Source: Candidatus Poseidoniaceae archaeon (lineage in GTDB: Archaea; Thermoplasmatota; Poseidoniia; Poseidoniales; Poseidoniaceae). From it: DNA of 64,000 bases. Positions 12,563 through 35,447 of the stretch are shown piece by piece. The notes below the pieces were generated by a model. It was given only the letters and a program-made list of their open reading frames with translations, made no database searches and was not told where the DNA came from. How positions within the stretch are numbered: the stretch's first letter is position 1; each line of letters starts with the position of its first letter. Where the stretch lies: contig CASICQ010000003.1 of NCBI GenBank assembly GCA_949373235.1, positions 49,136 to 113,135 of the forward strand, read 5' to 3'. Both the position numbers and the translations under genes were made by a program.

Positions 12563-12620
12563 GAAGAACTTACAGAAGTGTTAGCGAGGTAAAATATACT
12601 TCATCGCATTGTTAAATTAC

Positions 12621-14624
12621 ATGGCGAAGAAAACTATACCTGTTGTGCTAATTGTATTACTGCTTGTTGGAGCGTCGGTTCTTGCCCTTCAACGCCACGG
12701 GGAGGCAGGAATCACTCAAGATGGGGAGAACTCTGACGGGTTGCCTCTCGTACCTCTCGTTGAGCGTACCACACAGGGCATTCAAGCCTCAGACGACCTT
12801 CGTATTGCTCTTCAAAATGAGGCATACATGAATCTTGAATTCTACCAAAACAATGCGTATGAATGCGGATTAAGCGGTGTGTACTCATTTATGGTGATGA
12901 ATCCAATCAACAGTGAAGCTGGAGATGAGGCGCCGCTTTGGGTTTACTTACATGGCGGGGGCTCAGGCTATTGGGCTGAAGATGGGACCTATTACGCCGT
13001 AGGTGCACAGACTCAGGACACATGGAACCATGAGGAAACATCCGAAGATCTTCTCGAAACGATTACACTTCGAATTGATTTCATCGGTGGGCAAGTGGAA
13101 GACAACACGTTGTCTCGACGCATCATGGAGGGGTATCGGCTGCTTGTGGTCTCTATGTGCGACCATGACCAATACCTCGGAATGGGGACCGCCATCCCAA
13201 ATCATCCATCAAATCCGAATGCTGAAGTGAACGGTTTACAAGCAACTATGGCGGCCATTGATTACACTGTAGCGAGTTATCCAACGACCAATGTGTTCGT
13301 GCACGGAACAAGTGCGGGTTCCGTTGGCGCCTATGCTGTTGGGTTGAGTTACGCTGCCGAAGGAACAGGTTTGACCGGTGTTGTATCCGATTCGATTCTC
13401 ACCTCACGCAACATCGTGATTCAAGATCTATTTGCTGGAACACCGGGTTTTCCTCAACAGGAAGGGTTTGAGACTTCAGGTGTTGATGCAAAGGTGGGCG
13501 TATGGAGAGACAGTGATAACCTGCTTTCACCGGAGGAAAGAATTGCTGCTGGTTTTGAGATGACGCCCATTCTCCAAATTGGCGGCACAATTGATTCTCA
13601 ATGTGCAGGTGATCGGGCTGCAATCCCCGAAGCCGTTGCGGAAGGATTCGACAACAATTGTAGGTGGCTGGCTCAGCCAATGAAAGACATCCTTAATCTA
13701 CAACCCAACAACCCACACGGGCTGGCATTAATCGAAGGCGAAAAACATGTTCCAACCATTAATGTCGGAGCTTCACATGACATCGTCGATTCATTCATTT
13801 CAGCATCCATTCAACGCTCAATTGCTTACCCGTTTGAAGAAGGAATAACCCTCGATAACGACTGGATGGCTGACCAATTGAGTCCTGACAATCATAACGT
13901 CCTCTACATTGGCCACAGTTTTGGAAATATTTTCGCAAAAACGCTTAGTAATCATGCAGAATTAGCAGGCATTACCAATCATTCACAATACAATGAGGTA
14001 AGTGGAGGGGCATCCGGAGCGCCTGATGCGCTGTGGGCTGATGAAGGGCACCGCGAGACCATCAAGGCTTACTTGGATACTGGTGAAGTCGATGTATTGA
14101 TCATGATTTGTTGCAGCATTGAGTTTATTGAAACCGGTCTCCAATCTGATGCGGCAATTTGGAATTTCACCTCCTATGCCATAGAAAAGAATCCTGATAC
14201 ACACATTGGTTTGGCCATGCCATGGAAAGATTTCCCAGCGGAATATGAGAACGGAACGGAGTACAGAAATCAATCAGATATTGCCTATGATGCCTGGGTG
14301 AATCTCTCCACAAACTTGAGTACTGATTTCCCATCTACTGATGTATTTACATTCAATCATGGGGCAGTCTTGTATGAACTCCGAGATATGTTTGAAGCAG
14401 GTGAACTGGATGGAGACGTTGACCAACTTACAGGACCGAAAGAAACCTCCATTTTCACCGATGCAAAAGGCCACGCAGGGCAAATCGCAATTGATACTGG
14501 TACGCTGGTATGGCTTCATGCCGTGTATGGTATTGAACCCACCAGTGTTCCAGAATTTGATCAATATGAAGTTGATATTCGACAGATTGCTCAGACTGTT
14601 ATTGATGAGCAAAATCAACAGTAG
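12621..14624 (+). CDS. Secreted alpha/beta-hydrolase-fold protein (esterase/lipase-like) with a large C-terminal extension
   Basis: A signal peptide KKTIPVVLIVLLLVGASVLAL is present. PLWVYLHGGGSG is an HGGG oxyanion-hole-like motif. VFVHGTSAGSVGAY is a GxSxG nucleophile elbow. The ORF track starts at TTG 12609; the first ATG is 12621. Confidence 0.5.
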   Translation: MAKKTIPVVLIVLLLVGASVLALQRHGEAGITQDGENSDGLPLVPLVERTTQGIQASDDLRIALQNEAYMNLEFYQNNAYECGLSGVYSFMVMNPINSEAGDEAPLWVYLHGGGSGYWAEDGTYYAVGAQTQDTWNHEETSEDLLETITLRIDFIGGQVEDNTLSRRIMEGYRLLVVSMCDHDQYLGMGTAIPNHPSNPNAEVNGLQATMAAIDYTVASYPTTNVFVHGTSAGSVGAYAVGLSYAAEGTGLTGVVSDSILTSRNIVIQDLFAGTPGFPQQEGFETSGVDAKVGVWRDSDNLLSPEERIAAGFEMTPILQIGGTIDSQCAGDRAAIPEAVAEGFDNNCRWLAQPMKDILNLQPNNPHGLALIEGEKHVPTINVGASHDIVDSFISASIQRSIAYPFEEGITLDNDWMADQLSPDNHNVLYIGHSFGNIFAKTLSNHAELAGITNHSQYNEVSGGASGAPDALWADEGHRETIKAYLDTGEVDVLIMICCSIEFIETGLQSDAAIWNFTSYAIEKNPDTHIGLAMPWKDFPAEYENGTEYRNQSDIAYDAWVNLSTNLSTDFPSTDVFTFNHGAVLYELRDMFEAGELDGDVDQLTGPKETSIFTDAKGHAGQIAIDTGTLVWLHAVYGIEPTSVPEFDQYEVDIRQIAQTVIDEQNQQ

Positions 14625-17615: not shown

Positions 17616-17649
17616 GAACTCGACTACCTAACTCTTGGAAGTGAACAAT

Positions 17650-19878
17650 ATGGCTGGCGATGAAAACACAATGTCCCTGCGAGTAGCAAAAGCAATACCA
17701 TCCGATGTCGGCCATGGCCGTGCACGTATTTCGGGTGAGAACGACCTCGACTTGAAGCCTGGGGACATTGTAGAAATCAAGGGCGATAAGCGCTCCACTG
17801 CCGCTATTTACTGGCGAAGCCGTCCCGAAGACACGAAAATGGAAATCATTCGAGTCGACGGCATCATTCGGAAGAACGCGGGTGTCAGCCTTGGCGACCG
17901 TGTGACCGTATCCAAAGTTGAAGCCAAAGAATGCACAAAACTTGTGCTCTCGCCGGTCATGGCCAACAAACAGAAGGTCAAGTTCGGCCCGGGCATCGAA
18001 GGTTTTGCTCGACGAGGCCTCTCGAAGCGACCTGTTGTTCAAGGCGATCGTATTTTCATACCCGGCATGACCCTCTTTGCTGAGGCGTTGCCGTTCGCAG
18101 TTGTCAGCACCGTTCCAAAGGGCATTGTCAAGGTCACCAACGACACGGACATCGTCATCAAAGACGAAACGGTCGATGACGAAGACGCAGGTCAATCTGA
18201 AGGCATCACCTACGAAGACGTGGGCGGCATCGGGCAACAGTTGCAGAAGGTCAGAGAAATGATCGAACTGCCCCTGAAGCACCCAGAGTTGTTCCGTCGG
18301 CTGGGCATCGACCCGCCAAAGGGCGTTCTCCTCCACGGGCCACCGGGCACAGGGAAAACCATGATTGCCAAGGCTGTAGCCACTGAAGTGCAAGCGCACT
18401 TTAAGTCGATTAACGGGCCAGAAATTATTTCCAAGTACTACGGAGAATCCGAAAAGCAATTGCGTGAAATTTTCGACGAAGCTGCAGAAAATGCACCGGC
18501 GATTATCTTCATTGACGAAATTGATTCAATCTGCCCCAAGCGCGAAGACGTCAGCGGTGAAGTTGAGCGGCGGGTTGTTGCCCAGATGCTCACCCTCATG
18601 GATGGTATGCAAGGACGTGACAATGTCGTCGTCATCGGTGCAACCAACCGAAGGGACGCACTCGACCCTGCCTTGAGAAGGCCTGGCCGATTCGACCGAG
18701 AAATCGAAATTGGAGTCCCTGACCGCGATGGACGAAACGAAATCATGGACGTTCACACCCGCCAAATGCCAATTTCGGAAGACTTTGACATCAGTTGGGT
18801 CCTTGACAACACATATGGTTTCGTCGGCGCAGATCTTGCAGCACTCGTTCGTGAGGCTGCCATGAGGGCCCTCCGACGATACCTGCCTGAGATCGAACTG
18901 GAAGAGGAAACCATACCTCCGGAAGTTCTCGAAAAGATGGAAGTTCGCATGGATGACTTCAAGGAAGCAATCAAGGATGTTGAACCGTCTGCATTGCGTG
19001 AGATTTATGTTGAAATCCCCGAAGTTACATGGGAAGAAGTCGGTGGCCTAGAAGAAGTCAAAGACCGCTTGAAGGAATCTGTGGAATGGCCTCTTACTCA
19101 ACCTGAACTGTTCGAACATTTCGGCATTAAGCCACCACGAGGTATCGTGCTATTCGGTGCACCGGGGACAGGGAAAACCCTTCTGGCCAAAGCGATTGCT
19201 AACGAAGCCCAAGCCAATTTCATCAGCATCAAAGGACCTGAACTGATTTCAAAATGGGTTGGAGAATCGGAACGTGCAATCCGTGAGATTTTCAAGAAAG
19301 CCAAGCAATCCGCGCCCGCCATCATCTTCCTTGATGAGTTTGAATCGATTGCAAGCATGCGGTCATCAAATTCCGACGGATCGGGAAGCGATGTTTCGAA
19401 CCGTGTGGTCAACCAGTTGCTTGCCAGTATGGACGGTGTCGAATCGCTCGATGGTGTGATCATTGTTGCGGCGACAAATCGACCGGAAATGATTGACCCT
19501 GCCCTGTTAAGAAGCGGCCGATTCGAGCGTGTGCTCCACGTCCCACCACCGGACATTGGTGCGCGTGAAACAATCTTTGCGATTCACAGCGAAAGCATGC
19601 CGCTCTCCAAATTCTCAATCAAGGACATCATTGGCGGTCTTGACGGATTCACCGGTGCTGACATTGAAGCAGTTTGCCGAGAAGCAGCCCTCATTTGCAT
19701 GCGTGCAAAGAAAAAGAAGGTCACTAAGACACACTTCGAAGAAGCAATCAAGCGTGTTCGCCCGACGGTTACACCTGAAATGTTGGATTACTATCAGAAG
19801 ATGGAAACCCGTCTCACGAGTGGCTTATCCAACATTAAGCGCAACCGCGACACCAGCTTCGGCATGGAATCGATGTGA
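17650..19878 (+). CDS. cdc48: CDC48/VCP-like AAA+ ATPase (two AAA domains, N-terminal CDC48 domain)
   Basis: There are two Walker A motifs GPPGTGKT and GAPGTGKT and two Walker B motifs ([18 protein letters not shown]). SRH regions and an N-terminal double-psi barrel are present. The ORF track start 17635 is a TTG; the first ATG is at 17650. Confidence 0.92.
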
Positions 19879-19948
19879 GACCCTCATTGCAAGCGACGCA
19901 TTGATGTGACGAAACTCGTTCGCTAGGCCATCGAAGGAGGGACTGAAC

Positions 19949-20188
19949 ATGGCAATATTTGCGCGGGAAATCATTGGAAGGGACGTTGTCGATTCACACC
20001 TCGAGCGGCTGGGTGAACTGAAGGACCTCGTTTTCGACAGCCCAACAGGCACCGTCATCGCCCTAAAAGTGGCCATTGAAGGGGATATTGATCCATCAAA
20101 ACTTCCTTGGGAATTGTCGGATGGCTTCGTCCAAATCCCGATCGATGAGATTCATCGAGTCGCAGCAAAAATACACCTCAAACGATGA
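19949..20188 (+). CDS. PRC-barrel domain protein
   Basis: The 79-aa sequence REIIGRDVVDSHLERLGELKDLVFDSPTGTVIALKV matches the archaeal PRC-barrel pattern. Confidence 0.55.
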   Translation: MAIFAREIIGRDVVDSHLERLGELKDLVFDSPTGTVIALKVAIEGDIDPSKLPWELSDGFVQIPIDEIHRVAAKIHLKR

Positions 20189-20326
20189 TTTTGGGAGCCC
20201 TCTGACTGGTTTCCATCCCTCGATTGCAAGTGATTTTGTTGAGCATTTGTTTGACAACCAGTCACAACCTTCTAAACCGATGCGAGAGCGTCCTCATGTC
20301 GGAATCTCGCTCCACTTGGTGTTTTT

Positions 20327-21934
20327 ATGTTCGGCGACCGCAACTTCAACTACCGACGAATCGGCCTACAAGCCGCTTTTTGGTTTGTGATGTCGCTTCT
20401 CTTGCTCACGGTTTTACTCAATTTTGTCAACCTTTCAAACACCAATCAATTGTCTGCTTATGACGACGATTGGGACGACATGTCAGCGTTTAGAGCGGAC
20501 TTGAAGGACGCTGGGATCAAGACGAGTTCTCTGGTGAGCAGTCCACTTTTGCTCGCCGATATTGAAGACCCTCGCAACACAACTTACATCGTGGCCGGTG
20601 TAGAACGCGACACCCTTTCGCTGCCTCAATTTGACGAAGATGGGTTCATTACCATCGCCGCTGATGACGGCTACTCTCCGTCTGAAATTGACGCTATTGT
20701 GGAGTTTGTCGAGGCAGGCGGAACTGCGCTTGTTCTCGATGATTATGGGTTTGCTGGCACCATTGCAGAAGCCTTCGGGATACGATACACAGGATACCAG
20801 CTTTACGACACCACCTATGTGGCGGATTTAGATTACAACTTCATTTGGATGTGCGTCCAAGCCACTCCCTGCGGCATGAACGGAACCGAAATCGATGCAT
20901 CCACGGTATCCGTTCACAACCGCTGGAGCGGAAACTTGGGCGAAGGCGAACACCCTTGCAGCGTCCTTGACGGTCAAACCATGGCGCTTGAAGACGCAGG
21001 TTTGTGCGCTCAGCATTGGGCTGCTGGAGAAATTCAATACAACGCGACCTACCAAATGCTCCTCAACGACATCACTGCACTCGAACTCATTCCTGGAGCG
21101 ATCGGCGCTTTACCCGAGGTTTCTGTACGGGCCGTAACCAGCAATGAAGCCACCGTCGATGTCAACGGTGACGGCGAAATATGGGTTGGCAACGAACAAA
21201 ACTCAGAAACCCCAGATTTATGGGGGCAATTCAATCTCAGTTTCGAAGCCTGTGCACGCAGTACATGCGATCCAAATGATGGGGGTCGCATTGTGTTCAT
21301 GGCTGATGGATCTGCGCTCATCAACGCCATGTATGATTATGAAGCGTTCAACGAAGGAGAATACGGCCCAACCAACAAAACGATTCCAAAGAACGACAAT
21401 CGCAAATGGGCTATGGATTTCGTCGCCGAGGCGTTGATGTCAACCGACCCCGCTGAGGCAGGGCAACCTTCTGAAACCGCAATGGTGATCTTCGATGAAT
21501 CACGGCATCCGCAAAATGCACTCCTTGCCGATTCCTACAACACCGTCTATTTCCTTCTGGTTTACTTTACAGGTGAAGGGCTTGCTATGCTCTTGCTGTT
21601 CTTGGTCCTCTTCGTGACCTTCGAAGCGGTGCTGCTGAAAAAGCGGGACCCGGAACCATGGCGCCACGTATTCAGCATCATCTACTACGGATTCGGGGAC
21701 GCCAACAGGTACACTTACTACGCCAAGAGTGAGAAAATCCGACAGGTGTTTTTATCCAAGGTCCGCAACCAAAACGGCCTCACACGAGAGGAATTCCACG
21801 CCATGCCGGCCAAGGACCTCGTCGCCCTCATCAATGACCCCGTGCTTGCTAAATTTGCCATTGAACCAAGCAGGTATTCACTGGAACAGACCGTTGCGGT
21901 GGTTAAACGAATCAAAGCGTGGGGCAGAACCTGA
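20327..21934 (+). CDS. Membrane-anchored hypothetical protein (N-terminal TM, large external domain with GATase1-like segment, C-terminal TM); architecture reminiscent of DUF4350-type partners of DUF58
   Basis: An N-terminal helix AAFWFVMSLLLLTVLLNFV and a C-terminal helix LLVYFTGEGLAMLLLFLVLFV are present. The segment ITIAADDGYSPSEIDAIVEFVEAGGTALVLDDYGF resembles a class-I glutamine-amidotransferase-like fold. An SD-like GGTGA precedes the next gene. Confidence 0.45.
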   Translation: MFGDRNFNYRRIGLQAAFWFVMSLLLLTVLLNFVNLSNTNQLSAYDDDWDDMSAFRADLKDAGIKTSSLVSSPLLLADIEDPRNTTYIVAGVERDTLSLPQFDEDGFITIAADDGYSPSEIDAIVEFVEAGGTALVLDDYGFAGTIAEAFGIRYTGYQLYDTTYVADLDYNFIWMCVQATPCGMNGTEIDASTVSVHNRWSGNLGEGEHPCSVLDGQTMALEDAGLCAQHWAAGEIQYNATYQMLLNDITALELIPGAIGALPEVSVRAVTSNEATVDVNGDGEIWVGNEQNSETPDLWGQFNLSFEACARSTCDPNDGGRIVFMADGSALINAMYDYEAFNEGEYGPTNKTIPKNDNRKWAMDFVAEALMSTDPAEAGQPSETAMVIFDESRHPQNALLADSYNTVYFLLVYFTGEGLAMLLLFLVLFVTFEAVLLKKRDPEPWRHVFSIIYYGFGDANRYTYYAKSEKIRQVFLSKVRNQNGLTREEFHAMPAKDLVALINDPVLAKFAIEPSRYSLEQTVAVVKRIKAWGRT

Positions 21935-21943
21935 GGTGAGATC

Positions 21944-23197
21944 ATGTGGACGCGTAAGGCATCATTTACATTCACCGGTGGTATTGCACTGGTTCTCATC
22001 GGGATGATGATTTCCAATCTTCAAATGATGATTTTAGGGCTTACTTTTGTTGCCTTCATCGTGGTCAATTCATGGATTTCAGGCCATGGAGAGGTGGAAG
22101 TGCAACGAACCCTCTCAGCCGATAACCTGTACAAGGGGGACGACCTCTATGTCGAACTTCTTGTGACCAACCGATCCAACAGAAACACACAGTTGCTTGA
22201 AGTCTACGATAACATTCCACACGAAATGAAATTGCGGAGCGGTTTGAATCAAATGCGACTCAACCTAAAGCCGGGTGAAAGCGCCCGAATCCGCTATGTG
22301 TTGCGCTGCCCATTGCGCGGGCATTACTCGATTGGCCCAGTTTCCCTGCGTTCTCGCAACACCTTCAACCTCGGTGTCGATGAAATGTACGTCGACCACC
22401 ACAGTGACATCGTCATCTTCCCACAGATCAAGGAAGTCGAGGAAGCCTTCCTCCGCTCTCGCACACCCAAGATGTACACGGGGGCCACAACCCTGCGCAC
22501 ACCTGGCCAAGGTTCTGAATTCTATTCGCTAAGGGAGTATGTCCCCGGAGACCCGTTCAAAAACATCAACTGGAAAGCGTTTGCACGGACAGGCGAGCTC
22601 ATGGTCAACGAAAAATGCCGGGACGCTGTTACCGATCTCTACTTGCTGCTCGACAGTCGAGATATTGCCCGAATCGGAACGGTGCTCAAGAACCCGCTCG
22701 AGATGGGGACGGTTTCTGCTGCAAGCCTCGCAGCCTTCTTCCTTAAGCGACGTGACTCGGTTGCGCTTGCTATTTTTGATGAAAAATTGTCCTACTTGCC
22801 GCCCGATACGGGTGACAAGCAGTACTTCAAAATCCTCAGTGCTCTTGCTGGAGTGTCACCAAAAGGTGCCATGCCTTTGCAAGCGGTCACCAATTCCCTG
22901 AGTGGAAGGTTCAGCCGAGGAAGCCCTGTGTTCATCATCTCTTCATGCGAAGGAGACGGGACGGTTCCCGCCGCAGTTCGTGACCTTGTTGGTCGCGGCC
23001 ACGAGGTGACTGTGTTGTCACCCTCGAGCATCGACTTCGAACGCCTCGTCAGTCGAATTCCACGCATGTCGTATGAGGTGCTCAAGCTCGAGCGTCAAAA
23101 CCGCCTCACCACGCTTGCTGGCTCTGGGGCACAAGTCATCGATTGGATGCCGGACATGGATTTGTCCCAAGCGTTGATGCAGGTAAGGGGGTACTGA
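21944..23197 (+). CDS. DUF58-domain protein (vWA-like; normally partnered with MoxR AAA ATPases)
   Basis: GSEFYSLREYVPGDPFKNINWKAFARTGELMVNE matches the DUF58 signature (G.EF..LR.Y..GD..R.I.WK..AR...L.V.E). An N-terminal TM pair is present. Confidence 0.75.
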   Translation: MWTRKASFTFTGGIALVLIGMMISNLQMMILGLTFVAFIVVNSWISGHGEVEVQRTLSADNLYKGDDLYVELLVTNRSNRNTQLLEVYDNIPHEMKLRSGLNQMRLNLKPGESARIRYVLRCPLRGHYSIGPVSLRSRNTFNLGVDEMYVDHHSDIVIFPQIKEVEEAFLRSRTPKMYTGATTLRTPGQGSEFYSLREYVPGDPFKNINWKAFARTGELMVNEKCRDAVTDLYLLLDSRDIARIGTVLKNPLEMGTVSAASLAAFFLKRRDSVALAIFDEKLSYLPPDTGDKQYFKILSALAGVSPKGAMPLQAVTNSLSGRFSRGSPVFIISSCEGDGTVPAAVRDLVGRGHEVTVLSPSSIDFERLVSRIPRMSYEVLKLERQNRLTTLAGSGAQVIDWMPDMDLSQALMQVRGY

Positions 23198-23199
23198 GC

Positions 23200-24423
23200 A
23201 TGGCTGAAGATGTTGGACTCCAACGCGACGTCACCGTTGGTGGTGAGTACAGCCCGAGGACGCTTCACCTGAAGTTGCTGAGAAAGCAGTGGCAAATTAT
23301 TGCCCTCCAGGTGATTGCAACAGTGGCCCTGGTTGGCATGTACCTCGAAGTCGTCTCAACCTATGTTGTCGGCTCCATTGACCACACCATGCTTTTCGAT
23401 ACAATTGAAGTGCTGATTGGCCAACAACTTCCAATTGGTGATTTCCTCACTGGAGAAGGAAACACAGGACTCGGACGCTTTTCTGTGCCGTTGATCCTTG
23501 GGATGTCGCTTGGCGGGAGCATGGCGTTCTTGGCCTTCCAAACCCCTAAGACTCAACAGCGAATCAAACTCGGCTTCATCATCACACTCATCGTGGTCCT
23601 TGTCGGACGATTGATTGTTTCTTGGGGCTTCGGCATGCTCACATCGTTTGATTTGCGCCTGCCCGATCAAGGGGAATTAGCCACATTAGAATGGCCTCTT
23701 TTGATGATCATGTCGCTGATGATTTTGTTCATTTACCTCCTTCCCGTCATTATGGGCACACGTGGAATATGGGGGCTTTCAAGGAGGTCAATCGCATGGT
23801 CCATCGGGTTCACATTGTTGTTTTTGGGGATTCACGCAATCCTAGCATTCCCGCTCATCAACGGTCAACTTGGAACCTACGGCGAAGCGTTAGCGACGGT
23901 TGAAACCCAATTTACTGAACCAACCATCGGCCTTTTCGGATTAATGTTGGTCACTAAGGAGCAGTTTGCTTTGATCATGATCGCAGTCCTCATCATGGTG
24001 TTCCAAGAATCATCTTACGGGGTAATCCGCTACCTTGAGTACGCATACAGACTTCCAGAATCTTGTAAGAGGGACCCTGAGTATGTCCGCCAAATGGACA
24101 ACGTGCTGAACACTCACCTCAAGCACACCTTCGGGTTCTTGGGATTAACAGGCATTGCTACGATGGTTGCCCTTGGTTTCCACAGCGTGCTGTTGGGCAT
24201 TGTTGAGGGTTCAACCGGAAGTCAATGGGCTGGGCAAATCTCGGAATCGATTGAACTGTCCTTAACGTATGGATTGGTCATTTCAGCGCTGATGTTTTTG
24301 AGCATCATGGCCTTGCTCAGGTTCTTTGTTCCATGGGAGCGGGTTTGGGGACTTGTCAACTCCTTACGGGGTCAAACTCCCATTGCAGCGACCCCGATGA
24401 CGAAAGACATCGTGGACCTTTGA
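23200..24423 (+). CDS. Polytopic membrane protein, hypothetical (same operon as the DUF58 gene)
   Basis: There are at least eight predicted hydrophobic helices. ATG 23200 follows the stop at 23197 by 2 nt. The ORF-track start 23143 would overlap the upstream gene by 55 nt. Confidence 0.5.
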   Translation: MAEDVGLQRDVTVGGEYSPRTLHLKLLRKQWQIIALQVIATVALVGMYLEVVSTYVVGSIDHTMLFDTIEVLIGQQLPIGDFLTGEGNTGLGRFSVPLILGMSLGGSMAFLAFQTPKTQQRIKLGFIITLIVVLVGRLIVSWGFGMLTSFDLRLPDQGELATLEWPLLMIMSLMILFIYLLPVIMGTRGIWGLSRRSIAWSIGFTLLFLGIHAILAFPLINGQLGTYGEALATVETQFTEPTIGLFGLMLVTKEQFALIMIAVLIMVFQESSYGVIRYLEYAYRLPESCKRDPEYVRQMDNVLNTHLKHTFGFLGLTGIATMVALGFHSVLLGIVEGSTGSQWAGQISESIELSLTYGLVISALMFLSIMALLRFFVPWERVWGLVNSLRGQTPIAATPMTKDIVDL

Positions 24424-24426
24424 GAT

Positions 24427-24672
24427 TCAGTTCGAGATCAAACGCTGCATTACACGGCCGATCAATTCGGTCGTGAACATCAGCAAAATCGGTAAGCCAC
24501 ACCAACCTGCCAGAGCGGACAAAACCGTCGATTCAATGGGATCCATCACCATCGGTTGTACAAAGAAGAAGGCCACGATGGCCCCGAGAAACAACAAACG
24601 TTCAATGAACAATGGATAGGTACGGCCTTTCGATTCTTCGCGAGCCATCAATGTTGTGGGTTTTTCTTCCAT
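24427..24672 (-). CDS. Small membrane protein (2 TM), hypothetical
   Basis: The 81-aa ORF has two hydrophobic helices. It lies 9 nt downstream of the coiled-coil gene on the same strand. Confidence 0.4.
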   Translation of the reverse strand: MEEKPTTLMAREESKGRTYPLFIERLLFLGAIVAFFFVQPMVMDPIESTVLSALAGWCGLPILLMFTTELIGRVMQRLISN

Positions 24673-24681
24673 GAAACCACC

Positions 24682-27600
24682 TCAGAGGTCCAGTCCTGAA
24701 AGACGGGCTTCAAGTGCGGCGAGCGCAGGATCAGGTGCTGCTTCTGGAGCTGGCTCCTTGCGATGCTCCCAAGATGCGTCGAGTTGAGCAAGTTCGGCTT
24801 CCAGTGCCGCCCGTTCGTCGCTGCCGTCCAAATCCGAGGTTGGTTCGATCGATGGTGATTCGGGGGGGGTTTCATCCACAGAATTTGTGCCTGCATCCAC
24901 CGGAATGGGCATTTCCTCCCACCCCTGTTCGTCGGCAACAGCAACCTCGACCGCAGCGTCAAGGGACACTGGAACTTCCCCTGCGAGGGTGGATTCCATG
25001 GTTGCAATCATGTTCACTTCAACCGGGGTGCGTTGACTGGCAGGCACTGAATCCCTTTCGTATGGCAATAAGCCGTCGCGTTGGAATTCCCAAAGCATGC
25101 CGCGGGGCACACCATCGGCAAGACCTGAAGCGTCGAGTTGCGTGATTAATTCCTCAAGCACCCTAGCGGTGTCTTCCAAAGCCACAGCCTCCCCAGCATC
25201 CCTTTGATCAGCTTCCAAGTAGATATCATCAAGTGCAACTTGAATCAATTGGCGTGTGGATTTGGCAATGCTTGGGAGCGCTTCTGGCCGAGTGCAATTG
25301 TTGAGCAGGGCCTCCACCTCTTCAGGTGGGGCGCCGAGTCGAACAAGTTGCTCGAGTACATTTCTCAATCGACGCAACATGGTGATGGATCGGTCGTAGT
25401 CTTCCAGTAAGTGTTCAAGGTCCAAGACCACATGGCCTACTGTCTCACCGAGTTGGTGTTCAAGGCGTTGTTGAACCGACCATCGAGCGAGTCCTCGTAC
25501 CGCACCTGCTGTCTGAGGCACTTGGCGTTCAAGTAAGGTCATGACTTCGCTTGAAAGTAAATGCCGTGGAGTTGCTGCAACATGATCAACAGTGGATTGA
25601 ATCACCTGCAAACCGCGTTCCACCGCTCGGTCAAGAAGGGTGACGGAGTACCCAAGCGCACGGGCGTGTTCCAAGCGTTCCAGCACCGGTCCAAGTCCGT
25701 CAAAGGTTTGAGCGTCGTCAAGAAGGGCTTGTGCAAGCGGTTCTTCTGCCAAACGTGCACGCAGGCGCTCAGCTTCCTGGATGTCGGCCACTGCAGCTTC
25801 GTGGGCTTCGGACAACGCCTCCGCTCGTTCGATGAGCGAAGCAAGTTCTGCTTCTGCGTGGCCTCTTCGAGCACCAAGGTCCCCTAACTCCCGCAAAATA
25901 TGCCTGCGTTCGTCCATTAGTTCGCGAAGTTCAGCCTGAACTTGGGCTTGGCGTGCCTCATCGGTGGCAAGTCGGTTTCGATCCTCTTCTGAACGACGTC
26001 GGCTGGCCTTGGCTTCCGATTCAATGGCGGACAACTCAGAGGTGTTGGTCTTGATTTTCTCATCCAACAGGAGGACTTCTGCTTGGGCCCGAGCGTGGCG
26101 TTCTCGTGTTGCTGCCACTTGTTCTTGCAGCACCTGCAGTCGACGTTCGTCGTCCTCGCTTTGTTGACGAATGGAGGAAAGTTGTTGGCTGTGGGTGTTG
26201 AGTTCAGCGTTCAAAGCCGCTTCTTTCAGCGACATGTCTTCAATTGCGGTTCGCAATGTTTCACTCGACGAGGCATCGCCGAGTGCTTTCGCTAATTCTG
26301 CGGCACGTTGGGAAACTTGGTGTTCAAGTTCATTGACTCGACGCACAAGACGCTCAGCTCGGTTCTCTGCTTGTTCAGAAGAAGCCTTAGATTGGGCCAA
26401 TTCAACTTGCATTGTGTTGTGCTTTGAATGAGCTTCTTCAAGCGAAGTTGTTGATTCCGCCCGAGTTTCTTTCGCTTCTCTGGCGACAATTTGTGCAGCG
26501 GTGGCTGCTGCATTCGCTTCATTCAATCTGTTCTCAACTGTTGCTTTTTCTTTCTCAAGTTCATCAATTCGATGGTCTGCGGCTTCCAGCCGACGGCGCA
26601 GGCCAGCGTCAACAGCAAGGGGTTGTGATGCTTCACCGCCCAAACCACCGCTTACCACTGCCACAGTTTCTGTGAACGAGGCTCCAGCGCGTTGGGTTCT
26701 GAGGTGTTCCATGCCTGTCTCAAAGCCATACAGTTCGTTTAATTTTGAAGTTAAATTCGCCCGACGGCTTTCCGAACGAGTTCGTAAAGTCACAAGGAGA
26801 TCTTGGAAATGATCAAGCGTGAATCCTTCGATGGTTCCGGAGTCCCTCGAAACAATGCTACCAGATGGCAATCGATGCAATTTCAAGACTCGAGTGGAAT
26901 CGGTAAAGGTCAGCATGGCTTCCTCCATGGTTCCACTTTGAGGGGCAGAAACACCCACTGGGATACCACGCGCTAAGACCACGGAAACAGCGGTTGAAGA
27001 TTGGCCAGACTGGAGGTGACCCGTGACTTCCTCATGCATTGCGGCAGAAAGCATGGACAGAATGGCGTCAGGTCCGCCTCGGCCTTCCCTCAAGACGAAT
27101 CCATCAGGGATGGGGCCCCCGGATGCACCGATTGCACCAAACTCTCCGTCCAAAATGCCAGCAACTGCAGAAATAATCCGAGCATGATCTGCATTTGCCT
27201 CTGTCCAAACACCGAGGGATGCATCACCGGATTGGGCGAGTAAAAGAGCACCGTCTTCGTGGTGCATGGTCCAGTGCGATGCCGAGGGGTCAATCCCTTC
27301 ATCCATCACTGAAATGGCCATGGCGCTCAAAGAGCCATGGATCTCACGGGCGAGTGTCTCTGCATCATTGGGTAAATCACCAACGCTGTCAATTAACAAG
27401 CCTTGATCGATGGCAACTGCTCCTCGGACCGTATCACGGCCCACAAGCACTTGCAATACGGAAGATAAATCACGGGACATGAGGCGTTGCAATGCATCCC
27501 CGCGCGGCAACAGCCCTTGGCGATCAGCTGGATGTTCAAACGCTTCAGGGAGAACTTCAGCGACGCTACCTAATCCAGCGAGGGAGTAGGATTGAGCAAT

Positions 27601-27852
27601 GAAGCGTGAAGCACCTTCGGCTTCAATTGAAAGCAAACGATCTTTCGCTGCTGTGCCTGCGAGGAGGGTTTTACCCTTTCCAGATTCTGCAAGCCAACCG
27701 ACAATCCTTCCAGCACGGACCAGTCGATGGCCAGCAGGGGTTTTCCTACGTCCAATCCAGGTGCTGATTACGCCGTGGTCAAAAGGCTGAATTATTCCGT
27801 CATCAACCGAAATGGCTTCTTCGATTGGGGTTCCTTGTGGTAGGTTAAACAT
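24682..27852 (-). CDS. Giant coiled-coil protein with N-terminal Roadblock/LC7-like segments and an acidic Pro/Ala-rich C-terminus
   Basis: The N-terminal region has VRGAVAIDQGLLIDSVGDLPNDAETLAREI (Roadblock-like) and a P-loop-like AESGKGKT. About 500 aa of heptad-rich sequence follows (ELEKEKATVENRLNEANAAATAAQ...). The C-terminus is rich in E/D/P/A. Confidence 0.6.
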   Translation of the reverse strand: MFNLPQGTPIEEAISVDDGIIQPFDHGVISTWIGRRKTPAGHRLVRAGRIVGWLAESGKGKTLLAGTAAKDRLLSIEAEGASRFIAQSYSLAGLGSVAEVLPEAFEHPADRQGLLPRGDALQRLMSRDLSSVLQVLVGRDTVRGAVAIDQGLLIDSVGDLPNDAETLAREIHGSLSAMAISVMDEGIDPSASHWTMHHEDGALLLAQSGDASLGVWTEANADHARIISAVAGILDGEFGAIGASGGPIPDGFVLREGRGGPDAILSMLSAAMHEEVTGHLQSGQSSTAVSVVLARGIPVGVSAPQSGTMEEAMLTFTDSTRVLKLHRLPSGSIVSRDSGTIEGFTLDHFQDLLVTLRTRSESRRANLTSKLNELYGFETGMEHLRTQRAGASFTETVAVVSGGLGGEASQPLAVDAGLRRRLEAADHRIDELEKEKATVENRLNEANAAATAAQIVAREAKETRAESTTSLEEAHSKHNTMQVELAQSKASSEQAENRAERLVRRVNELEHQVSQRAAELAKALGDASSSETLRTAIEDMSLKEAALNAELNTHSQQLSSIRQQSEDDERRLQVLQEQVAATRERHARAQAEVLLLDEKIKTNTSELSAIESEAKASRRRSEEDRNRLATDEARQAQVQAELRELMDERRHILRELGDLGARRGHAEAELASLIERAEALSEAHEAAVADIQEAERLRARLAEEPLAQALLDDAQTFDGLGPVLERLEHARALGYSVTLLDRAVERGLQVIQSTVDHVAATPRHLLSSEVMTLLERQVPQTAGAVRGLARWSVQQRLEHQLGETVGHVVLDLEHLLEDYDRSITMLRRLRNVLEQLVRLGAPPEEVEALLNNCTRPEALPSIAKSTRQLIQVALDDIYLEADQRDAGEAVALEDTARVLEELITQLDASGLADGVPRGMLWEFQRDGLLPYERDSVPASQRTPVEVNMIATMESTLAGEVPVSLDAAVEVAVADEQGWEEMPIPVDAGTNSVDETPPESPSIEPTSDLDGSDERAALEAELAQLDASWEHRKEPAPEAAPDPALAALEARLSGLDL

Positions 27853-27861
27853 ATCATCAAC

Positions 27862-28200
27862 TCACTGGGGGGTGGTGGCCAAAATTTTCCGATCGCGATC
27901 AAGAGCGTGACGCCATCGGGCCAGGCGACCTCCATTGCCTGACAGAGCGACGATTCGCGTTGGCGAAGCAACGTCGATCATCATCCGGTTTTCACCTTCA
28001 CACCATGCTTCGTACACCGCCCCCAATCCGAGGGCATCGGCTGATTCCAAAGCAGCAGAAATCACATCGACTGCGTGTTCAAATGGGGGGATTAGCCCTT
28101 CATCGCCTACGCTTGCCAACAAGGTCCCACTGTCGTCGATCAACATAGCGTGTTGAACGCCATCAAGGCGATACAATCCGGCCAGCGTGCGTTGCAACAT
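27862..28200 (-). CDS. Roadblock/LC7 (MglB-like) domain protein
   Basis: LYRLDGVQHAMLIDDSGTLLASVGDEG...ALGLGAVYEAWCEGENRMMIDVASPTRIVALSGNGG fits the Roadblock/LC7 pattern in a 112-aa protein. It lies 9 nt upstream of the coiled-coil gene. Confidence 0.65.
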   Translation of the reverse strand: MLQRTLAGLYRLDGVQHAMLIDDSGTLLASVGDEGLIPPFEHAVDVISAALESADALGLGAVYEAWCEGENRMMIDVASPTRIVALSGNGGRLARWRHALDRDRKILATTPQ

Positions 28201-31109: not shown

Positions 31110-32888
31110 GTGGAAGTCGAATGCATGGTGGACGCTTGGGCTGATGTTGAAACGGCTATTGAGTCCGCTATCAAGCAACGTCAACAACGGCTCGAACGAT
31201 TGACATCCACCTCGGCCCTGCTGCTCCTGAGTGGAGCGCTATGGCTGATGTGGCCAAACCTCAACGCCGCAATACTCGGGGAATCTGGATTGCTCAAGGG
31301 CCTTGGTTTCCCACTCCTGATCATTGTATGGGGCCTCATCATCCAAGACTTAGCAGTCGATGATGCCCGGGCAAGAACCCGTGTCGGTTCTGCAGCAAGC
31401 GTTCTTTGGCCTGTGCTTCTTATCATTGCGGCCCAAGCCCTCGATGTTTCCAACCTCAGCATGGTTGCAGGGAGCGTTCTGCTCACAGGGGTTGCCTTTT
31501 CATGCCTCAGCGCTTCTAAATCAATCCTTCAGGGAGGGTTGGATGTTCTGCGATGGCGGGCCATTATGACTGGGCTCGGCACGGTTATTGCGATCTCGCT
31601 CTTCGCTGGCAACACGCCTGAATCGATGACCAATGAATGGCTGGCCTGTATCGTCACTATGGCGTTTGGCGTTGGCTTGACCGGCTATGTTTGGTTCGTC
31701 GGTGACGACCAGCGTGCAAATCGAAAGAAATTCAGCCGACGATTGGACTCACTGGAGGTTCAACTTTTGGAACTCAAAGCAAACGGTGCAGCGGTGGACC
31801 AAGCTTCCAGTTTGATCATGACGGCCCGCGAAGAAGGCCACGTGGAACCCCTTCACGGCATGGAACTCCTCAATCAAGCAGAAGATGAAATGGAACGTGC
31901 GCTCTCCCTTTCTGGTGACGTTGAAGCAATCCGCGATGATGCAAGGGCCAGCATGGAGCAGGCTGAAGCCATCGCTCCAACAGCAAAACGGCCACGGAAA
32001 TCCTTCGACATGGGTGAAAGGGAAGTCAAACTTGGTTCGTTACGAGAGGGCGAACTCCTCTTCCGACAATCAAAAAAATACGCTCATGAAATCATTGAGT
32101 GGTGGGGGGTTGCTGAGAAAGCAATCGCCGAAGCGAGCCGTCAACTTCAACAAAAAGAAGGTGAAGGTGTTGAACATTTGAAGGAAATGCTTGCGGACGC
32201 CCGCAAGAAGTTGGCATCAGAAGCACCAAAGAAAGCCTACGAATTTGCTGTTGTGATTCCAGTTCAACTCGCTGCGGATGACGATGCATTAGGCAAAGCA
32301 GCCTTGTCGCTCAAAGAAGCAAATAGACAGTTAAAGCAAACTGATGGTTTAGACACCAGTGCAATGACACAACGCCTCGCACAAGCTGAAGAAGCACTCG
32401 AAGCCGGCAACGCAGGACAAGCCATCGGGTTGGCCGACGGTGTGGTACGTTCCATCGTTCAAGAACGTGAGGCAATGGACAATGTTCAGCGGGCGCTGCG
32501 CCAGCGAAAAAAGCTCATTTCTCAATATCAAGACCGAGACGATGAGACCGATTGGACAGAACGCCTAACGGCGATTGAACAAGCGGCGGATGCACGAAAG
32601 TGGAGCGAAGCCTCTGATTTGTTGAGCGCTATGAACCAAGACCTCGACAAAGAAGGCAAGGCGAGCGAAGAAGCGCTCGAACTGTACGACTTTGTTATGG
32701 ATGAATGGCGGATTCTTCGCAACCAGAGTGAAGCGATTGGAATCAAGGTCGAGGATGACGATCGCAGATTGACCGAGCAAGCCATTGCAGAAGCTGGAGA
32801 CGCATTGAGCGTTGGTCGCATCGAGGATTGTTTAGAGCACCTCGGTTCTGCAGACGCCTCTATGGAACGGTTGCGCCGGCGTATTTGA
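31110..32888 (+). CDS. Membrane protein with 5-6 N-terminal TM helices and a long alpha-helical/coiled-coil cytoplasmic domain, hypothetical
   Basis: Hydrophobic helices span residues about 30-210. A charged helical region with heptad character follows. The track start is a GTG; the first ATG is at 31125. Confidence 0.45.
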   Translation: MEVECMVDAWADVETAIESAIKQRQQRLERLTSTSALLLLSGALWLMWPNLNAAILGESGLLKGLGFPLLIIVWGLIIQDLAVDDARARTRVGSAASVLWPVLLIIAAQALDVSNLSMVAGSVLLTGVAFSCLSASKSILQGGLDVLRWRAIMTGLGTVIAISLFAGNTPESMTNEWLACIVTMAFGVGLTGYVWFVGDDQRANRKKFSRRLDSLEVQLLELKANGAAVDQASSLIMTAREEGHVEPLHGMELLNQAEDEMERALSLSGDVEAIRDDARASMEQAEAIAPTAKRPRKSFDMGEREVKLGSLREGELLFRQSKKYAHEIIEWWGVAEKAIAEASRQLQQKEGEGVEHLKEMLADARKKLASEAPKKAYEFAVVIPVQLAADDDALGKAALSLKEANRQLKQTDGLDTSAMTQRLAQAEEALEAGNAGQAIGLADGVVRSIVQEREAMDNVQRALRQRKKLISQYQDRDDETDWTERLTAIEQAADARKWSEASDLLSAMNQDLDKEGKASEEALELYDFVMDEWRILRNQSEAIGIKVEDDDRRLTEQAIAEAGDALSVGRIEDCLEHLGSADASMERLRRRI

Positions 32889-32894
32889 TGCGTC

Positions 32895-35447
32895 TTAGAG
32901 ATCGATGAGCCCTTTGGCCTTGATCGACTGGAAATCCATTCCGCCTGGGAAACCGAGGTCGACAGGCATACCACCAACCGTGACGATGATGCCAGTGAGA
33001 TGAAGATGAAGACCAACTGGGAAGGTTGAGGGATCGACCTTGGACAACATCTTCCATCCGTTCTGCCCTTTTTTAGAGGCGATGGTAAGTTGATTCGAAT
33101 CACCATGGAGGAACCAAGCATTCGCCCTCCAAGCATGTTGTTTAAGCCCCTTTTTGTGGAAGGCTGGAGGGGGCGCTACGACGTGGACTTTGCTCCAATA
33201 CTCATCGATGCTCTGCTCGGATTCTGTAATCCATTCCAATTCGGTTAATTCGCTTGGGCAAACTGGAGTCAAGCCCATTCGGGACAAATGGCCAAACAAA
33301 GCCCTCAGGTGCGGATGTCGGCCATGTTCGGCCAGCATGGTTTCCGCTGTTGCCACTGCGGTGTTCACTCGACCTGCATCAAGGTGCAACAAGCATCGAA
33401 CGACTTCCCCGTGAACCCATAAATCAATTTCGTTCGTTTTAATGAAACGCTCAAGCAAATCAAGAGCATCTTCGCTTTCTCTCGCCAAGCGCATTCGGGC
33501 GATATCGCCCAGCAAAAAGAGCCGCCCTGCTGGAGAGTCGACGTACTTCAGATCGCTTCTGCTTGTACCCGTTTGAAACCGCTTGACAAGGTCTATGTTT
33601 CGGCGCATGATGCTGTCCATAGACAACTGAGGCTTGAAACGGTCATCGAGTGGTTTTAATTTCGTGCTGAACAACGAAGCAGCCCATTTAATTCGGACGG
33701 TCTCGATGTTATCATCAGGCAGCAGTGGCAGTCGAGGCCTCGCTTCTGCAAAATCTCGTTGTGCCAAACTTGCGGCTGCAAGAATCAATCGGGCCAATTC
33801 TGCTTGCTTGCCCCCCTGGTATGCAATCAGTGAAATAGCGTTTTCTTCGGCATCGTTCCATCGGCTGAAACCAGCGTACAGCGTCATAACCGCAGCCGTT
33901 TTACGACCGAGGCTGACGGCGTCGAGATCCTTACCGTGACCCTGCAGGACTGTATCGAGTTGTTTCAGGGCTTTGACCCATTCATCTTGAGCCACCAAAG
34001 TGGTAAGTGGTTGCTGCTTGAGGTAGATGATATCTTCCATTTCGGTGAACTGTTGCCGTTCTTCTCCAACAGCAGCATCAAAGGTAATGTCTTCAATCTT
34101 AGAGCCGACTCGAAGCGAACTTACCCAGATGGCTAGGAAGGCAATTTGACCACCCGAAGCCAACATCCACGTTAATTCTTCAAGTCCTTCTTTTGTGAGC
34201 ACACTGCAAACTGTCGATTCCCATGTGCCGCATTGAGTGGTTTGAGGAAGAAAACTTGAATCCCAAAATGTAATCATGGCAAGCGCCAAGAGAAGCATGG
34301 ATTGACCGGCGAAGCCAGTGAAGCAAAAATTCAGAACCTTTGCTTGTTGGGAGCGTTCAGCCCTAAGCAAGCGGCTGTCTGCCAATTTAATTCCACCCTT
34401 CCCCGATACATCCTGCACGTTCAAGAACAGGATGTGTGCAACTTCGGAGACAAAGAGAAAACCGATGATGGCCACGTTGAGCAAGAGGAACAGAAGCACC
34501 ATAGAAACAATTGGGACCCGAATGCCATCGATTGGAATGTAAGAAAAGAGCTCGATTAAACCGAAACCAAGCAAACCACCTTCCTCCATGAAGGTTTCTT
34601 GAGGCCTATACTCTGGAAGGTTGAGCACGCGGTCTGAGTGAACCAATAAGTTCGAATCCACCAACAACACAAGGAGGGAAAGCAATGTGTTGAGCGCAAC
34701 AAAGGGCATAATGATAAGGTTGAAATTAACAAATTGTGCTAAGATTTGCTGTCGAGCGTTTGGAGCGTGATTATGGAAAGGTGAAATTTCCCCAATGGCG
34801 GTCTTTTTTGATGATTGGCGAAGGGCTTGCCATGATGACCCGAGGATACGTCCGTAGGCGAGCGCCGAAGGGGAAAATAGCGTTAAAGAAGCAATGCTGA
34901 ACCGTCTAGAATCGGATACGCCGGCATGGCCTAAAGCCATGTAAAGACCACACACAACGGCCAACCAAAACAAAAGCAGGTAGACATAATTGTAAGTGCG
35001 CGCCAAACTTGAACTTTGAAGGGTGGCTCGATCTTGTCGAATTGGTTTCAGAACTTGCGTTCCCAAGGAAGATGCACTCGACACAAGGGCGGGCAAAGCG
35101 ATGAACATCAAGGCAACAGAAAGCGAAGGTGTGTGGTACCCAGAAGAAATATCAAATTGAGTGAGAACGAACTCAAACAAGAGGATCAAAACCCCAACAA
35201 GGGCGAAGAGGTATGTTATGACTCCGAACTTCATGCCTGGAGCGCGCAGCAATTCACGAGCATCGGTCACTGTGTGCGTCACCTGATGGACTTCGTAGGA
35301 TAATTCTCCTGTTTCAAAAGCGACTTGCAATCCACGCAACTGGCGGGGAACAATTTTGGCCCAAAACATCCATGCCGTCAATCCTGCCAGCAAGAGAGGG
35401 ATGATGGCAACAGAAGGAAATCCGTCGATGATAGGGGGTGCTGCCAT
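32895..35447 (-). CDS. Large polytopic integral membrane protein (850 aa), hypothetical
   Basis: There are more than 12 hydrophobic segments. No recognisable catalytic motif was seen. Confidence 0.45.
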   Translation of the reverse strand: MAAPPIIDGFPSVAIIPLLLAGLTAWMFWAKIVPRQLRGLQVAFETGELSYEVHQVTHTVTDARELLRAPGMKFGVITYLFALVGVLILLFEFVLTQFDISSGYHTPSLSVALMFIALPALVSSASSLGTQVLKPIRQDRATLQSSSLARTYNYVYLLLFWLAVVCGLYMALGHAGVSDSRRFSIASLTLFSPSALAYGRILGSSWQALRQSSKKTAIGEISPFHNHAPNARQQILAQFVNFNLIIMPFVALNTLLSLLVLLVDSNLLVHSDRVLNLPEYRPQETFMEEGGLLGFGLIELFSYIPIDGIRVPIVSMVLLFLLLNVAIIGFLFVSEVAHILFLNVQDVSGKGGIKLADSRLLRAERSQQAKVLNFCFTGFAGQSMLLLALAMITFWDSSFLPQTTQCGTWESTVCSVLTKEGLEELTWMLASGGQIAFLAIWVSSLRVGSKIEDITFDAAVGEERQQFTEMEDIIYLKQQPLTTLVAQDEWVKALKQLDTVLQGHGKDLDAVSLGRKTAAVMTLYAGFSRWNDAEENAISLIAYQGGKQAELARLILAAASLAQRDFAEARPRLPLLPDDNIETVRIKWAASLFSTKLKPLDDRFKPQLSMDSIMRRNIDLVKRFQTGTSRSDLKYVDSPAGRLFLLGDIARMRLARESEDALDLLERFIKTNEIDLWVHGEVVRCLLHLDAGRVNTAVATAETMLAEHGRHPHLRALFGHLSRMGLTPVCPSELTELEWITESEQSIDEYWSKVHVVAPPPAFHKKGLKQHAWRANAWFLHGDSNQLTIASKKGQNGWKMLSKVDPSTFPVGLHLHLTGIIVTVGGMPVDLGFPGGMDFQSIKAKGLIDL

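Follow-up and report, generated by a model that had tools for sequence, protein, structure and literature searches.

What might planktonic archaea do with a Roadblock/LC7 domain that is built into a protein of more than 1,000 residues? This question is raised by three co-directional genes found in a 64,000-nucleotide stretch (hereafter the window) of contig CASICQ010000003.1 from a Candidatus Poseidoniaceae archaeon (assembly GCA_949373235.1). The corresponding open reading frames (ORFs) all lie on the minus strand. Gene 1 (27862..28200) codes for a predicted single-domain Roadblock/LC7-like protein of 112 residues, gene 2 (24682..27852) for a giant rod protein of 1,056 residues in which a head is followed by a coiled coil, a C-terminal α-domain and an acidic tail, and gene 3 (24427..24672) for an 81-residue hairpin membrane protein with two transmembrane (TM) segments predicted from hydropathy. 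To our knowledge, the Poseidoniales (Marine Group II, MG-II) rank among the most abundant archaea of the plankton, none of them has been brought into culture, and nothing is known of their cell biology. We report here that the three genes form a conserved predicted operon specific to this order, that this operon is under strong purifying selection, and that its products may constitute a membrane-anchored scaffold carrying a Roadblock platform.

A conserved three-gene module in the Poseidoniales

The gaps between genes 1 and 2 and between genes 2 and 3 measure 9 nt each, and a Shine-Dalgarno-like GGTGG is found inside the gap ahead of gene 3. A preliminary description of the locus, made by reading the sequence, had placed the 112-residue gene 9 nt upstream of the giant, followed by the 81-residue gene, and these coordinates hold exactly. 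It had also proposed to compare gene neighbourhoods across related archaea. A hidden Markov model (HMM) scan of 88 related loci showed that the order small Roadblock, giant, two-TM gene is kept on the same strand in 81 of them. The gaps within the module are of 1-11 nt across all loci examined, and the two-TM gene follows the giant in 87 of the 88 loci. Five of the seven loci that lack the full order run into the end of a contig; the remaining two (L006 and L007) represent the most divergent lineage, with a giant at 25% identity. The module is retained there, with a degenerate upstream small Roadblock ORF whose N-terminus is still recognisable (hhalign 62%).

The same two loci have an additional gene. 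In this Thalassarchaeaceae-type locus (GCA_964389655.1; 13182-14567), an FG-GAP repeat protein of 448-461 residues with a C-terminal TM segment is encoded between the giant and the two-TM protein, and its gene overlaps the 3' end of the giant gene.

Full-length homologues of the giant (1047-1085 residues, 64-100% identity) fall into more than 120 clusters. A search with its head (residues 1-400) against 1.84 billion representatives yielded only 65 matches, approximately 13 of which are full-length (1020-1089 residues), with identities down to 25%. Taken together, the full-length homologues measure 1020-1095 residues. All named homologues are from Poseidoniales, and both families of the order are represented: they are assigned to Candidatus Poseidoniaceae, to Candidatus Thalassarchaeaceae or to a generic 'Euryarchaeota/Thermoplasmatota archaeon' only. 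Phage homologues were sought, and none was found. The profile of the small Roadblock protein retrieved 71 clusters only, all of them orthologues. At least 230 species-representative genomes code for a protein related to the giant in its C-terminal domain. In the window protein, this domain is 100% identical to that encoded on contig CALDNA010000052.1 of a metagenome-assembled genome and 97% identical to that of the published MG-II chromosome CM001443.1.

When the giant was compared with its close relatives, the rates of non-synonymous substitution (dN) were 0.03-0.2, those of synonymous substitution (dS) were saturated (>1), and their ratio (ω) was ~0.02-0.1 in every region. The operon is under strong purifying selection. 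The named homologues are annotated as 'hypothetical protein' or with the JGI generic COG name for Roadblock, and we found no account of the family of the giant in the searchable literature; both bear out the initial impression of an unrecognised architecture.

Two divergent predicted Roadblock domains

The small protein was initially taken for a Roadblock/LC7 protein, and its family supports this assignment. The window protein itself matches Pfam Robl_LC7 (PF03259) over residues 3-32 only, with an E value of 0.002 and a score of 18.2 bits versus a cut-off of 23. Of 19 orthologues, 18 match PF03259 (best E 1.2e-5), and several orthologue clusters have a precomputed PF03259 assignment. Searched against the PDB, the family profile matches two Roadblock proteins best, 7yh1_D and 7f8m_A, with E values of 0.02-0.035 only, and the alignment with 7yh1_D covers residues 2-87 (E 0.022). 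Judged by these sequence comparisons, the 112-residue protein is a divergent Roadblock/LC7-like protein. Its most conserved segment in the orthologue alignment is the near-invariant, basic GGRLARWRHALDRDRR (residues 89-104), which by our own assignment would lie in helix α3 of the Roadblock fold.

A second Roadblock domain is predicted in the head of the giant, which was modelled with AlphaFold2 (AF2) on a 16-sequence alignment (mean predicted local distance difference test score, pLDDT, 79; predicted template modelling score, pTM, 0.65). The head contains three domains, D1 (residues 1-112; 27517..27852), D2 (residues 126-236; 27145..27477) and D3 (residues 251-358; 26779..27102), followed by a neck helix (residues 359-392, or 361-390 in the model; 26677..26778), all on the minus strand. 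D1 is β-rich (pLDDT ~87-94), and D3 is an α/β domain with the order β-α-β-β-β-α-β-α (pLDDT ~86-93). According to the homologue alignment and the model, the neck helix harbours invariant G376, F377 and E382, and the invariant R357 is located just upstream, at the end of D3.

D2 has the Roadblock/LC7 fold in the model, with the topology α-β-β-α-β-β-β-α, and it is superposable on solved Roadblock proteins. Foldseek agrees with this fold, and the head profile matches CvnB5 (3leq_A) with an E value of 1.8e-4 over residues 132-230 (28% identity over ~95 residues). The Roadblock-like segment previously noticed in the N-terminal 300 residues, VRGAVAIDQGLLIDSVGDLPNDAETLAREI (residues 142-171), lies within D2. 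It is thus upheld by the topology of the domain and by the CvnB5 match, although Pfam misses D2: there is no match to PF03259 at the gathering score in the window protein, and 4 of 19 giant homologues give sub-threshold matches (best E 6e-4).

D1 and D3 were also considered as further Roadblock domains and rejected, as hhalign comparisons with D2 and with the small Roadblock protein were blank and the order of strands and helices differs. The two domains are devoid of mutual similarity by hhalign. The D1 profile has no significant match among PDB sequences, and D3 has none in Pfam or among PDB sequences. By eye, D3 or D1 resembles PATAN/DUF4388 (PF14332), but this family matched neither 16 D3 segments (E ≤ 10) nor 19 full-length proteins (E ≤ 1), and PDB sequences lent it no support.

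D1 contains the string AESGKGKT (residues 55-62; 27667-27690), described at first as P-loop-like. It fits the Walker A pattern in the lineage of the window only; homologues have ESKKASEL, ESDNASVL or ENETGKYL at this position. In the model, it makes up the turn that joins the two strands of a β-hairpin (49-56 and 62-65) and not a conserved strand-loop-helix. Because it is not conserved and is found in a β-hairpin, we regard it as a chance match, and a P-loop nucleoside triphosphatase (NTPase) was rejected.

Rod, C-terminal domain and tail of the giant protein

The rod (residues 417-703; 25744..26604, minus strand) has high heptad scores, with no proline and almost no glycine between residues 451 and 650. 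It is shorter than the ~500 residues of continuous coiled coil originally described, since the coiled coil amounts to ~285 residues, is broken twice and gives way to a helical domain at residues 704-935. Its three segments, CC1 (417-520), CC2 (537-652) and CC3 (665-703), are separated by breaks at residues 521-536 (AKALGDxxSSExLR) and 653-664 (RELGDLGARRG), and both breaks are conserved. The lengths of CC2 (116 residues) and CC3 (39 residues) are invariant across 19 sequences that are ~35% identical, and CC1 has 101-104 residues. In these sequences, only three alignment columns between residues 521 and 935 are gapped, all of them in the C-terminal domain; the length of the rod is therefore under constraint. 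CC1 and CC2 are of similar length, which would allow the rod to fold back on itself in antiparallel fashion at the first break.

Two stretches in and around the breaks (residues 498-536 and 645-664) are far more conserved than the flanking heptads. They contain the sequences RAERLVRRVNELEHQVSxRAxELAKALGD and LRELMxERRxxLRELGDLGARRG, respectively.

The best-conserved part of the giant is its all-α C-terminal domain (residues 704-935; 25048..25743, minus strand), predicted with a mean pLDDT of 80.6. Its conserved motifs are EPLAQALL, GYSVTLLDRAVERGL, VRGLxRWSVQQRLE, RPEALP, ALDDIYLEADQRDAG and LWxFQRDGLLPxE. The window protein and its nine most distant homologues share 60% identity in this domain versus 29-36% in the head and rod. 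The domain has no known structural relative.

The tail (residues 936-1056; 24685..25047, minus strand) was correctly described as acidic and rich in proline and alanine: its 121 residues comprise 20 Ala, 17 Glu, 13 Pro and 10 Asp, with 27 acidic versus 5 basic residues. It varies in length among homologues, with 37 to 99 residues ahead of a first conserved motif, motif A (DERAxLEAELARLD; 24769-24819, minus strand). Motif B (ALxxLEAxLSDLD[LMIF]-COOH; 24685-24729, minus strand) is conserved at the very C-terminus, and A and B represent one type of motif. The C-terminal α-domain and the two tail motifs, which are the most conserved and had been missed in the preliminary description, are probably the most important part of the giant.

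The MIM1 motif of ESCRT-III proteins has the consensus (D/E)xxLxxRLxxL(K/R), with a conserved arginine and a terminal basic residue. The tail motifs of the giant show the leucine spacing, but the position of the arginine varies (R, K, D or E), and all 19 of 19 sequences have an acidic-hydrophobic end (LDL, LEL or LDM). A tail of the MIM1 type was hence rejected.

The last protein of the module, encoded by gene 3, had been reported to have two TM segments, and hydropathy indeed delineates two hydrophobic stretches, at about residues 20-44 and 48-72. Its orthologues conserve two flanking motifs, RxYPxxIE ahead of TM1 and TExIGR behind TM2. Both termini are probably cytoplasmic according to the positive-inside rule.

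Proposed function and alternatives

The explanation that we favour, tentatively and with a confidence somewhat short of even, is that the operon codes for a membrane-anchored scaffold with a Roadblock platform, which would operate in the manner of Ragulator or MglB/MglC, its partner being unlinked. In LAMTOR2/3, in the C-terminal domains of the Rag proteins and in MglB/MglC, Roadblock domains pair or stack, and D2 of the giant may similarly do so with the small Roadblock protein. The rod of the giant would dimerise, and the C-terminal domain and tail motifs would recruit effectors, with the rod fixing the distance at which they are held. The two-TM protein would tether the assembly to the cytoplasmic membrane, possibly with the help of the basic α3 face of the small Roadblock protein; a basic patch has a role in membrane binding in MglB, and such a role was proposed for MKD1-RB (PMC10933270). 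The platform would bind a partner whose gene lies elsewhere in the genome, be it a nucleotide-dependent switch protein or not. Roadblock dimers are known to serve as GTPase platforms (PMC10933270). The cellular role would likely be spatial organisation at the membrane, i.e. polarity, division-site or envelope organisation. The anatomy of the module fits the cytoskeletal, polarity or membrane-remodelling scaffold suggested in the preliminary description.

A bolder form of this proposal, which we consider improbable, is that the module represents a membrane-organising machine of the Poseidoniales, of a kind unknown until now and with the novel C-terminal domain at its core. A Roadblock heterodimer on a fixed-length rod would position an unlinked switch, possibly of a new type, and the whole would be a Ragulator-like platform of euryarchaea, arisen independently of the Asgard and eukaryotic ones or before them. 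If this were true, a Ragulator-like platform would control division-site, polarity or envelope organisation in an archaeal group that ranks with the most abundant ones of the surface ocean.

Several observations weigh against a Roadblock-platform scaffold. Both Roadblock domains are very divergent, and the proteins of the window itself remain sub-threshold on Pfam. No profile similarity between D2 and the small Roadblock protein is detectable by hhalign; the two are therefore not the products of a recent duplication. D1, D3 and the C-terminal domain yielded no functional clue. There is no GTPase or other NTPase partner for the module in the 64-kb window, and in five loci spread over the order, Pfam annotation of the neighbours (±10 kb) revealed no GTPase. 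Finally, synteny is high in Poseidoniales generally, with PyrBI, the TtuA-like gene, Aldedh and SQS_PSY also retained nearby. Since these unrelated housekeeping genes are kept too, conservation of the neighbourhood beyond the three-gene unit is uninformative.

The lack of a partner small GTPase in the immediate neighbourhood was noted from the outset and extends to the whole window and to the related loci. A Walker-A scan of all window ORFs returned only CDC48, an ORF of 1138 residues and chance matches. An MglA probe matched neither the window nor the 88 related loci, a weak test because the query sequence was approximate. However, the module may have a GTPase even though none is adjacent: 328 of 749 prokaryotic MglB homologues are 'orphans' without an adjacent GTPase, none of which had been characterised by 2014 (PMC4316618), and the GTPase genes of Asgard archaea do not, as a rule, share operons with Roadblock genes (PMC10933270).

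In the main alternative, which is conceivable if unlikely, the giant would be a cytoskeletal or filament element of the coiled-coil type that acts on its own, comparable to crescentin, FilP, DivIVA or EzrA, and it would shape or brace the cell. Its Roadblock domains would then only oligomerise or adapt, with no nucleotide switch. The long, length-invariant rod with its conserved internal segments would suit such an element, as would the absence of a nearby GTPase, and Roadblock is a pure adaptor in dynein LC7 (PMC10933270). However, the rod is only ~285 residues long and has two conserved breaks, and it is the globular C-terminal domain rather than the heptad positions that is most strongly constrained. 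The conserved three-domain head, the docking motifs of the tail and the dedicated membrane partner suggest a recruiter rather than a polymer, and there is no evidence of self-assembly of the giant.

Next to the module, a gene cluster on the plus strand (17635-24423) codes for CDC48, with two AAA domains, a 79-residue PRC-barrel protein, DUF4350 and DUF58 proteins and a polytopic membrane protein of ~407 residues as called (426-residue ORF) that has no Pfam match. The cluster converges on the 81-residue gene, leaving a gap of 3 nt, and Poseidoniaceae and Thalassarchaeaceae both retain this layout.

That the module works with this cluster, e.g. by serving the AAA+ unfoldase as substrate or adaptor or by belonging to an FtsZ-division or envelope complex, with the tail motifs docking on the ATPase, appears quite improbable to us. 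The convergence kept in both families speaks in its favour, and PRC-barrel proteins (CdpB) act in archaeal FtsZ division, often paired with Cdc48 (bioRxiv 10.1101/2023.03.28.534520). Nevertheless, the module and the cluster are on opposite strands and therefore on separate transcripts, unrelated housekeeping genes are equally syntenic, and the FG-GAP insertion of one lineage means that the giant no longer adjoins the convergent cluster there. The short, conserved helical motifs at the end of the tail have the leucine spacing of ESCRT-III MIM1, but the arginine and lysine positions of MIM1 are not conserved, and CDC48 has a CDC48_N domain and not an MIT domain.

We regard it as very unlikely that the giant is an SMC/Rad50-like chromosome-associated protein. 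It has weak NCBIfam matches to SMC and Rad50 (E 3.5e-8 to 1e-3), which fall on the coiled-coil arms of these proteins. They are confined to the arms (residues 418-707 of the giant), at 27-32 bits versus cut-offs of 567-729. AESGKGKT fits a Walker A pattern, but it lies in a β-hairpin and is not conserved, and the giant has no domain with a Walker B or signature motif, no hinge and no zinc hook. A Roadblock head and a novel α-domain occupy its termini, where SMC and Rad50 have the halves of an ABC-type ATPase head. Some homologues carry nucleic-acid-related COG names from JGI; the giant, however, is strongly acidic, with 176 D+E versus 105 K+R. As for the last alternative, a low-complexity or spurious ORF, named in the preliminary description as what would refute it, is scarcely credible, as it has nothing more than a biased Ala/Glu/Leu composition in its favour and is excluded by hundreds of intact full-length orthologues, by dN far below dS (dN/dS ~0.02-0.1, with saturated dS) and by the globular domains confidently predicted in the giant. 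Both the SMC-like protein and the artefact are thus effectively excluded.

Other genes of the window

The window is a chromosomal region of ordinary housekeeping character, and the neighbours of the module include genes for PyrB/PyrI, a TtuA-like tRNA thiolase, ThrRS, CTP synthase, a thermosome, DnaK and CDC48. Further away, a bacterial-type cluster resembling those for polyunsaturated fatty acid or polyketide synthases is present in this archaeal genome (52127-62555, minus strand). It comprises genes for a phosphopantetheinyl transferase (52127-52882), a KR-DH protein (52895-54712), a KS-AT-ACP(x3) megasynthase of 2,364 residues (54657-61751) and an enoyl-ACP reductase (61761-62555).

Two large proteins without significant Pfam matches are encoded between ThrRS and PyrB and keep their positions in related genomes. 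Inspection by eye of the first, of 592 residues (31110-32888, plus strand), shows hydrophobic segments at the N-terminus, which may be TM, and an extended helical region that ends in ...MERLRRRI. The second, of 850 residues (32895-35447, minus strand), has many hydrophobic stretches by eye and a sub-threshold match to TPR_19 (E 0.0026). Two more ORFs, of 1,138 and 671 residues (7214-10630 and 12609-14624, both on the plus strand), have no Pfam match at E ≤ 0.001; the former contains the Walker-A-like GASNPGKT.

Comparison with known systems

Roadblock platforms are central to GTPase-based spatial control in bacteria (MglA/MglB) and in eukaryotes (Ragulator-Rag, dynein). The module resembles the MglB/MglC pair of the MglA polarity module of Myxococcus and Thermus in that two different Roadblock proteins are encoded together. 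In addition, the conserved basic segment of the small protein recalls the membrane-binding patch of MglB (PMC10933270). An MglB protein is considered 'coupled' when a cognate MglA-family GTPase is encoded within about four genes (PMC4316618). There is no MglA-type GTPase within four genes of the module or in the window; lacking an adjacent GTPase, the module is therefore not a coupled MglA/MglB system but an 'orphan' in that sense (PMC4316618). It also differs from MglB in that one of its Roadblock domains is embedded in a 1,056-residue rod protein and in that its host is an archaeon, and its Roadblocks share the fold with the MglB clade but have no affinity to it in sequence.

The best sequence match of the head profile, CvnB5, belongs to the CvnB proteins of the actinobacterial conservons (CvnA-D). 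A conservon was rejected, as no genes for a CvnA sensor kinase, CvnC (DUF742) or a CvnD GTPase are found in the neighbourhood. Dynein LC7, which is associated with the intermediate chain, is devoid of helix α3 and binds a helix of its partner instead. In contrast, D2 keeps its C-terminal helix in the model, and we read an α3 helix in the alignment of the small Roadblock protein. We know of no dynein-type motor in archaea. Membrane-tethered coiled-coil organisers of the EzrA/DivIVA type have no sequence or significant fold relationship with the module, and they lack a Roadblock domain. The Dip divisome-positioning system was considered and rejected as well, since the domains of the DipA GTPase, of DipB (DUF2073, SepF-like) and of DipC (Zn ribbon and disordered region; PMC13228585) are absent from the three proteins.

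The stand-alone Roadblock proteins of Asgard archaea (MKD1-RB, 7yh1; RB2 and RB3, 9jq8 and 9jue; Thor-RB, 7f8m) provide the best profile matches of the small protein. They are archaeal, homodimeric and not encoded in operons with GTPases (PMC10933270). In contrast with the module, they are single-domain proteins of ~115-120 residues, with no rod fusion and no membrane hairpin, and they belong to another phylum.

With Ragulator (LAMTOR1-5) and the C-terminal Roadblock domains of the Rag proteins, the module shares the logic of a membrane-anchored scaffold of paired Roadblocks, a pairing that we only propose here. The putative anchor of the module is a two-TM hairpin protein, and that of Ragulator is the lipidated, extended LAMTOR1. 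The module has no Rag-like GTPases fused to Roadblock, and its coiled-coil rod and novel C-terminal domain have no counterpart in Ragulator. The Roadblock domain itself is known, but in Pfam, NCBIfam, the PDB and the searchable literature we found no description of the D1-Roadblock-D3-rod-α-domain architecture and its two partners. Beside two Roadblock domains, the operon encodes three domains without recognisable relatives, and its combination of Roadblock, rod and membrane anchor provides a concrete handle on the role of orphan Roadblocks in non-Asgard archaea.

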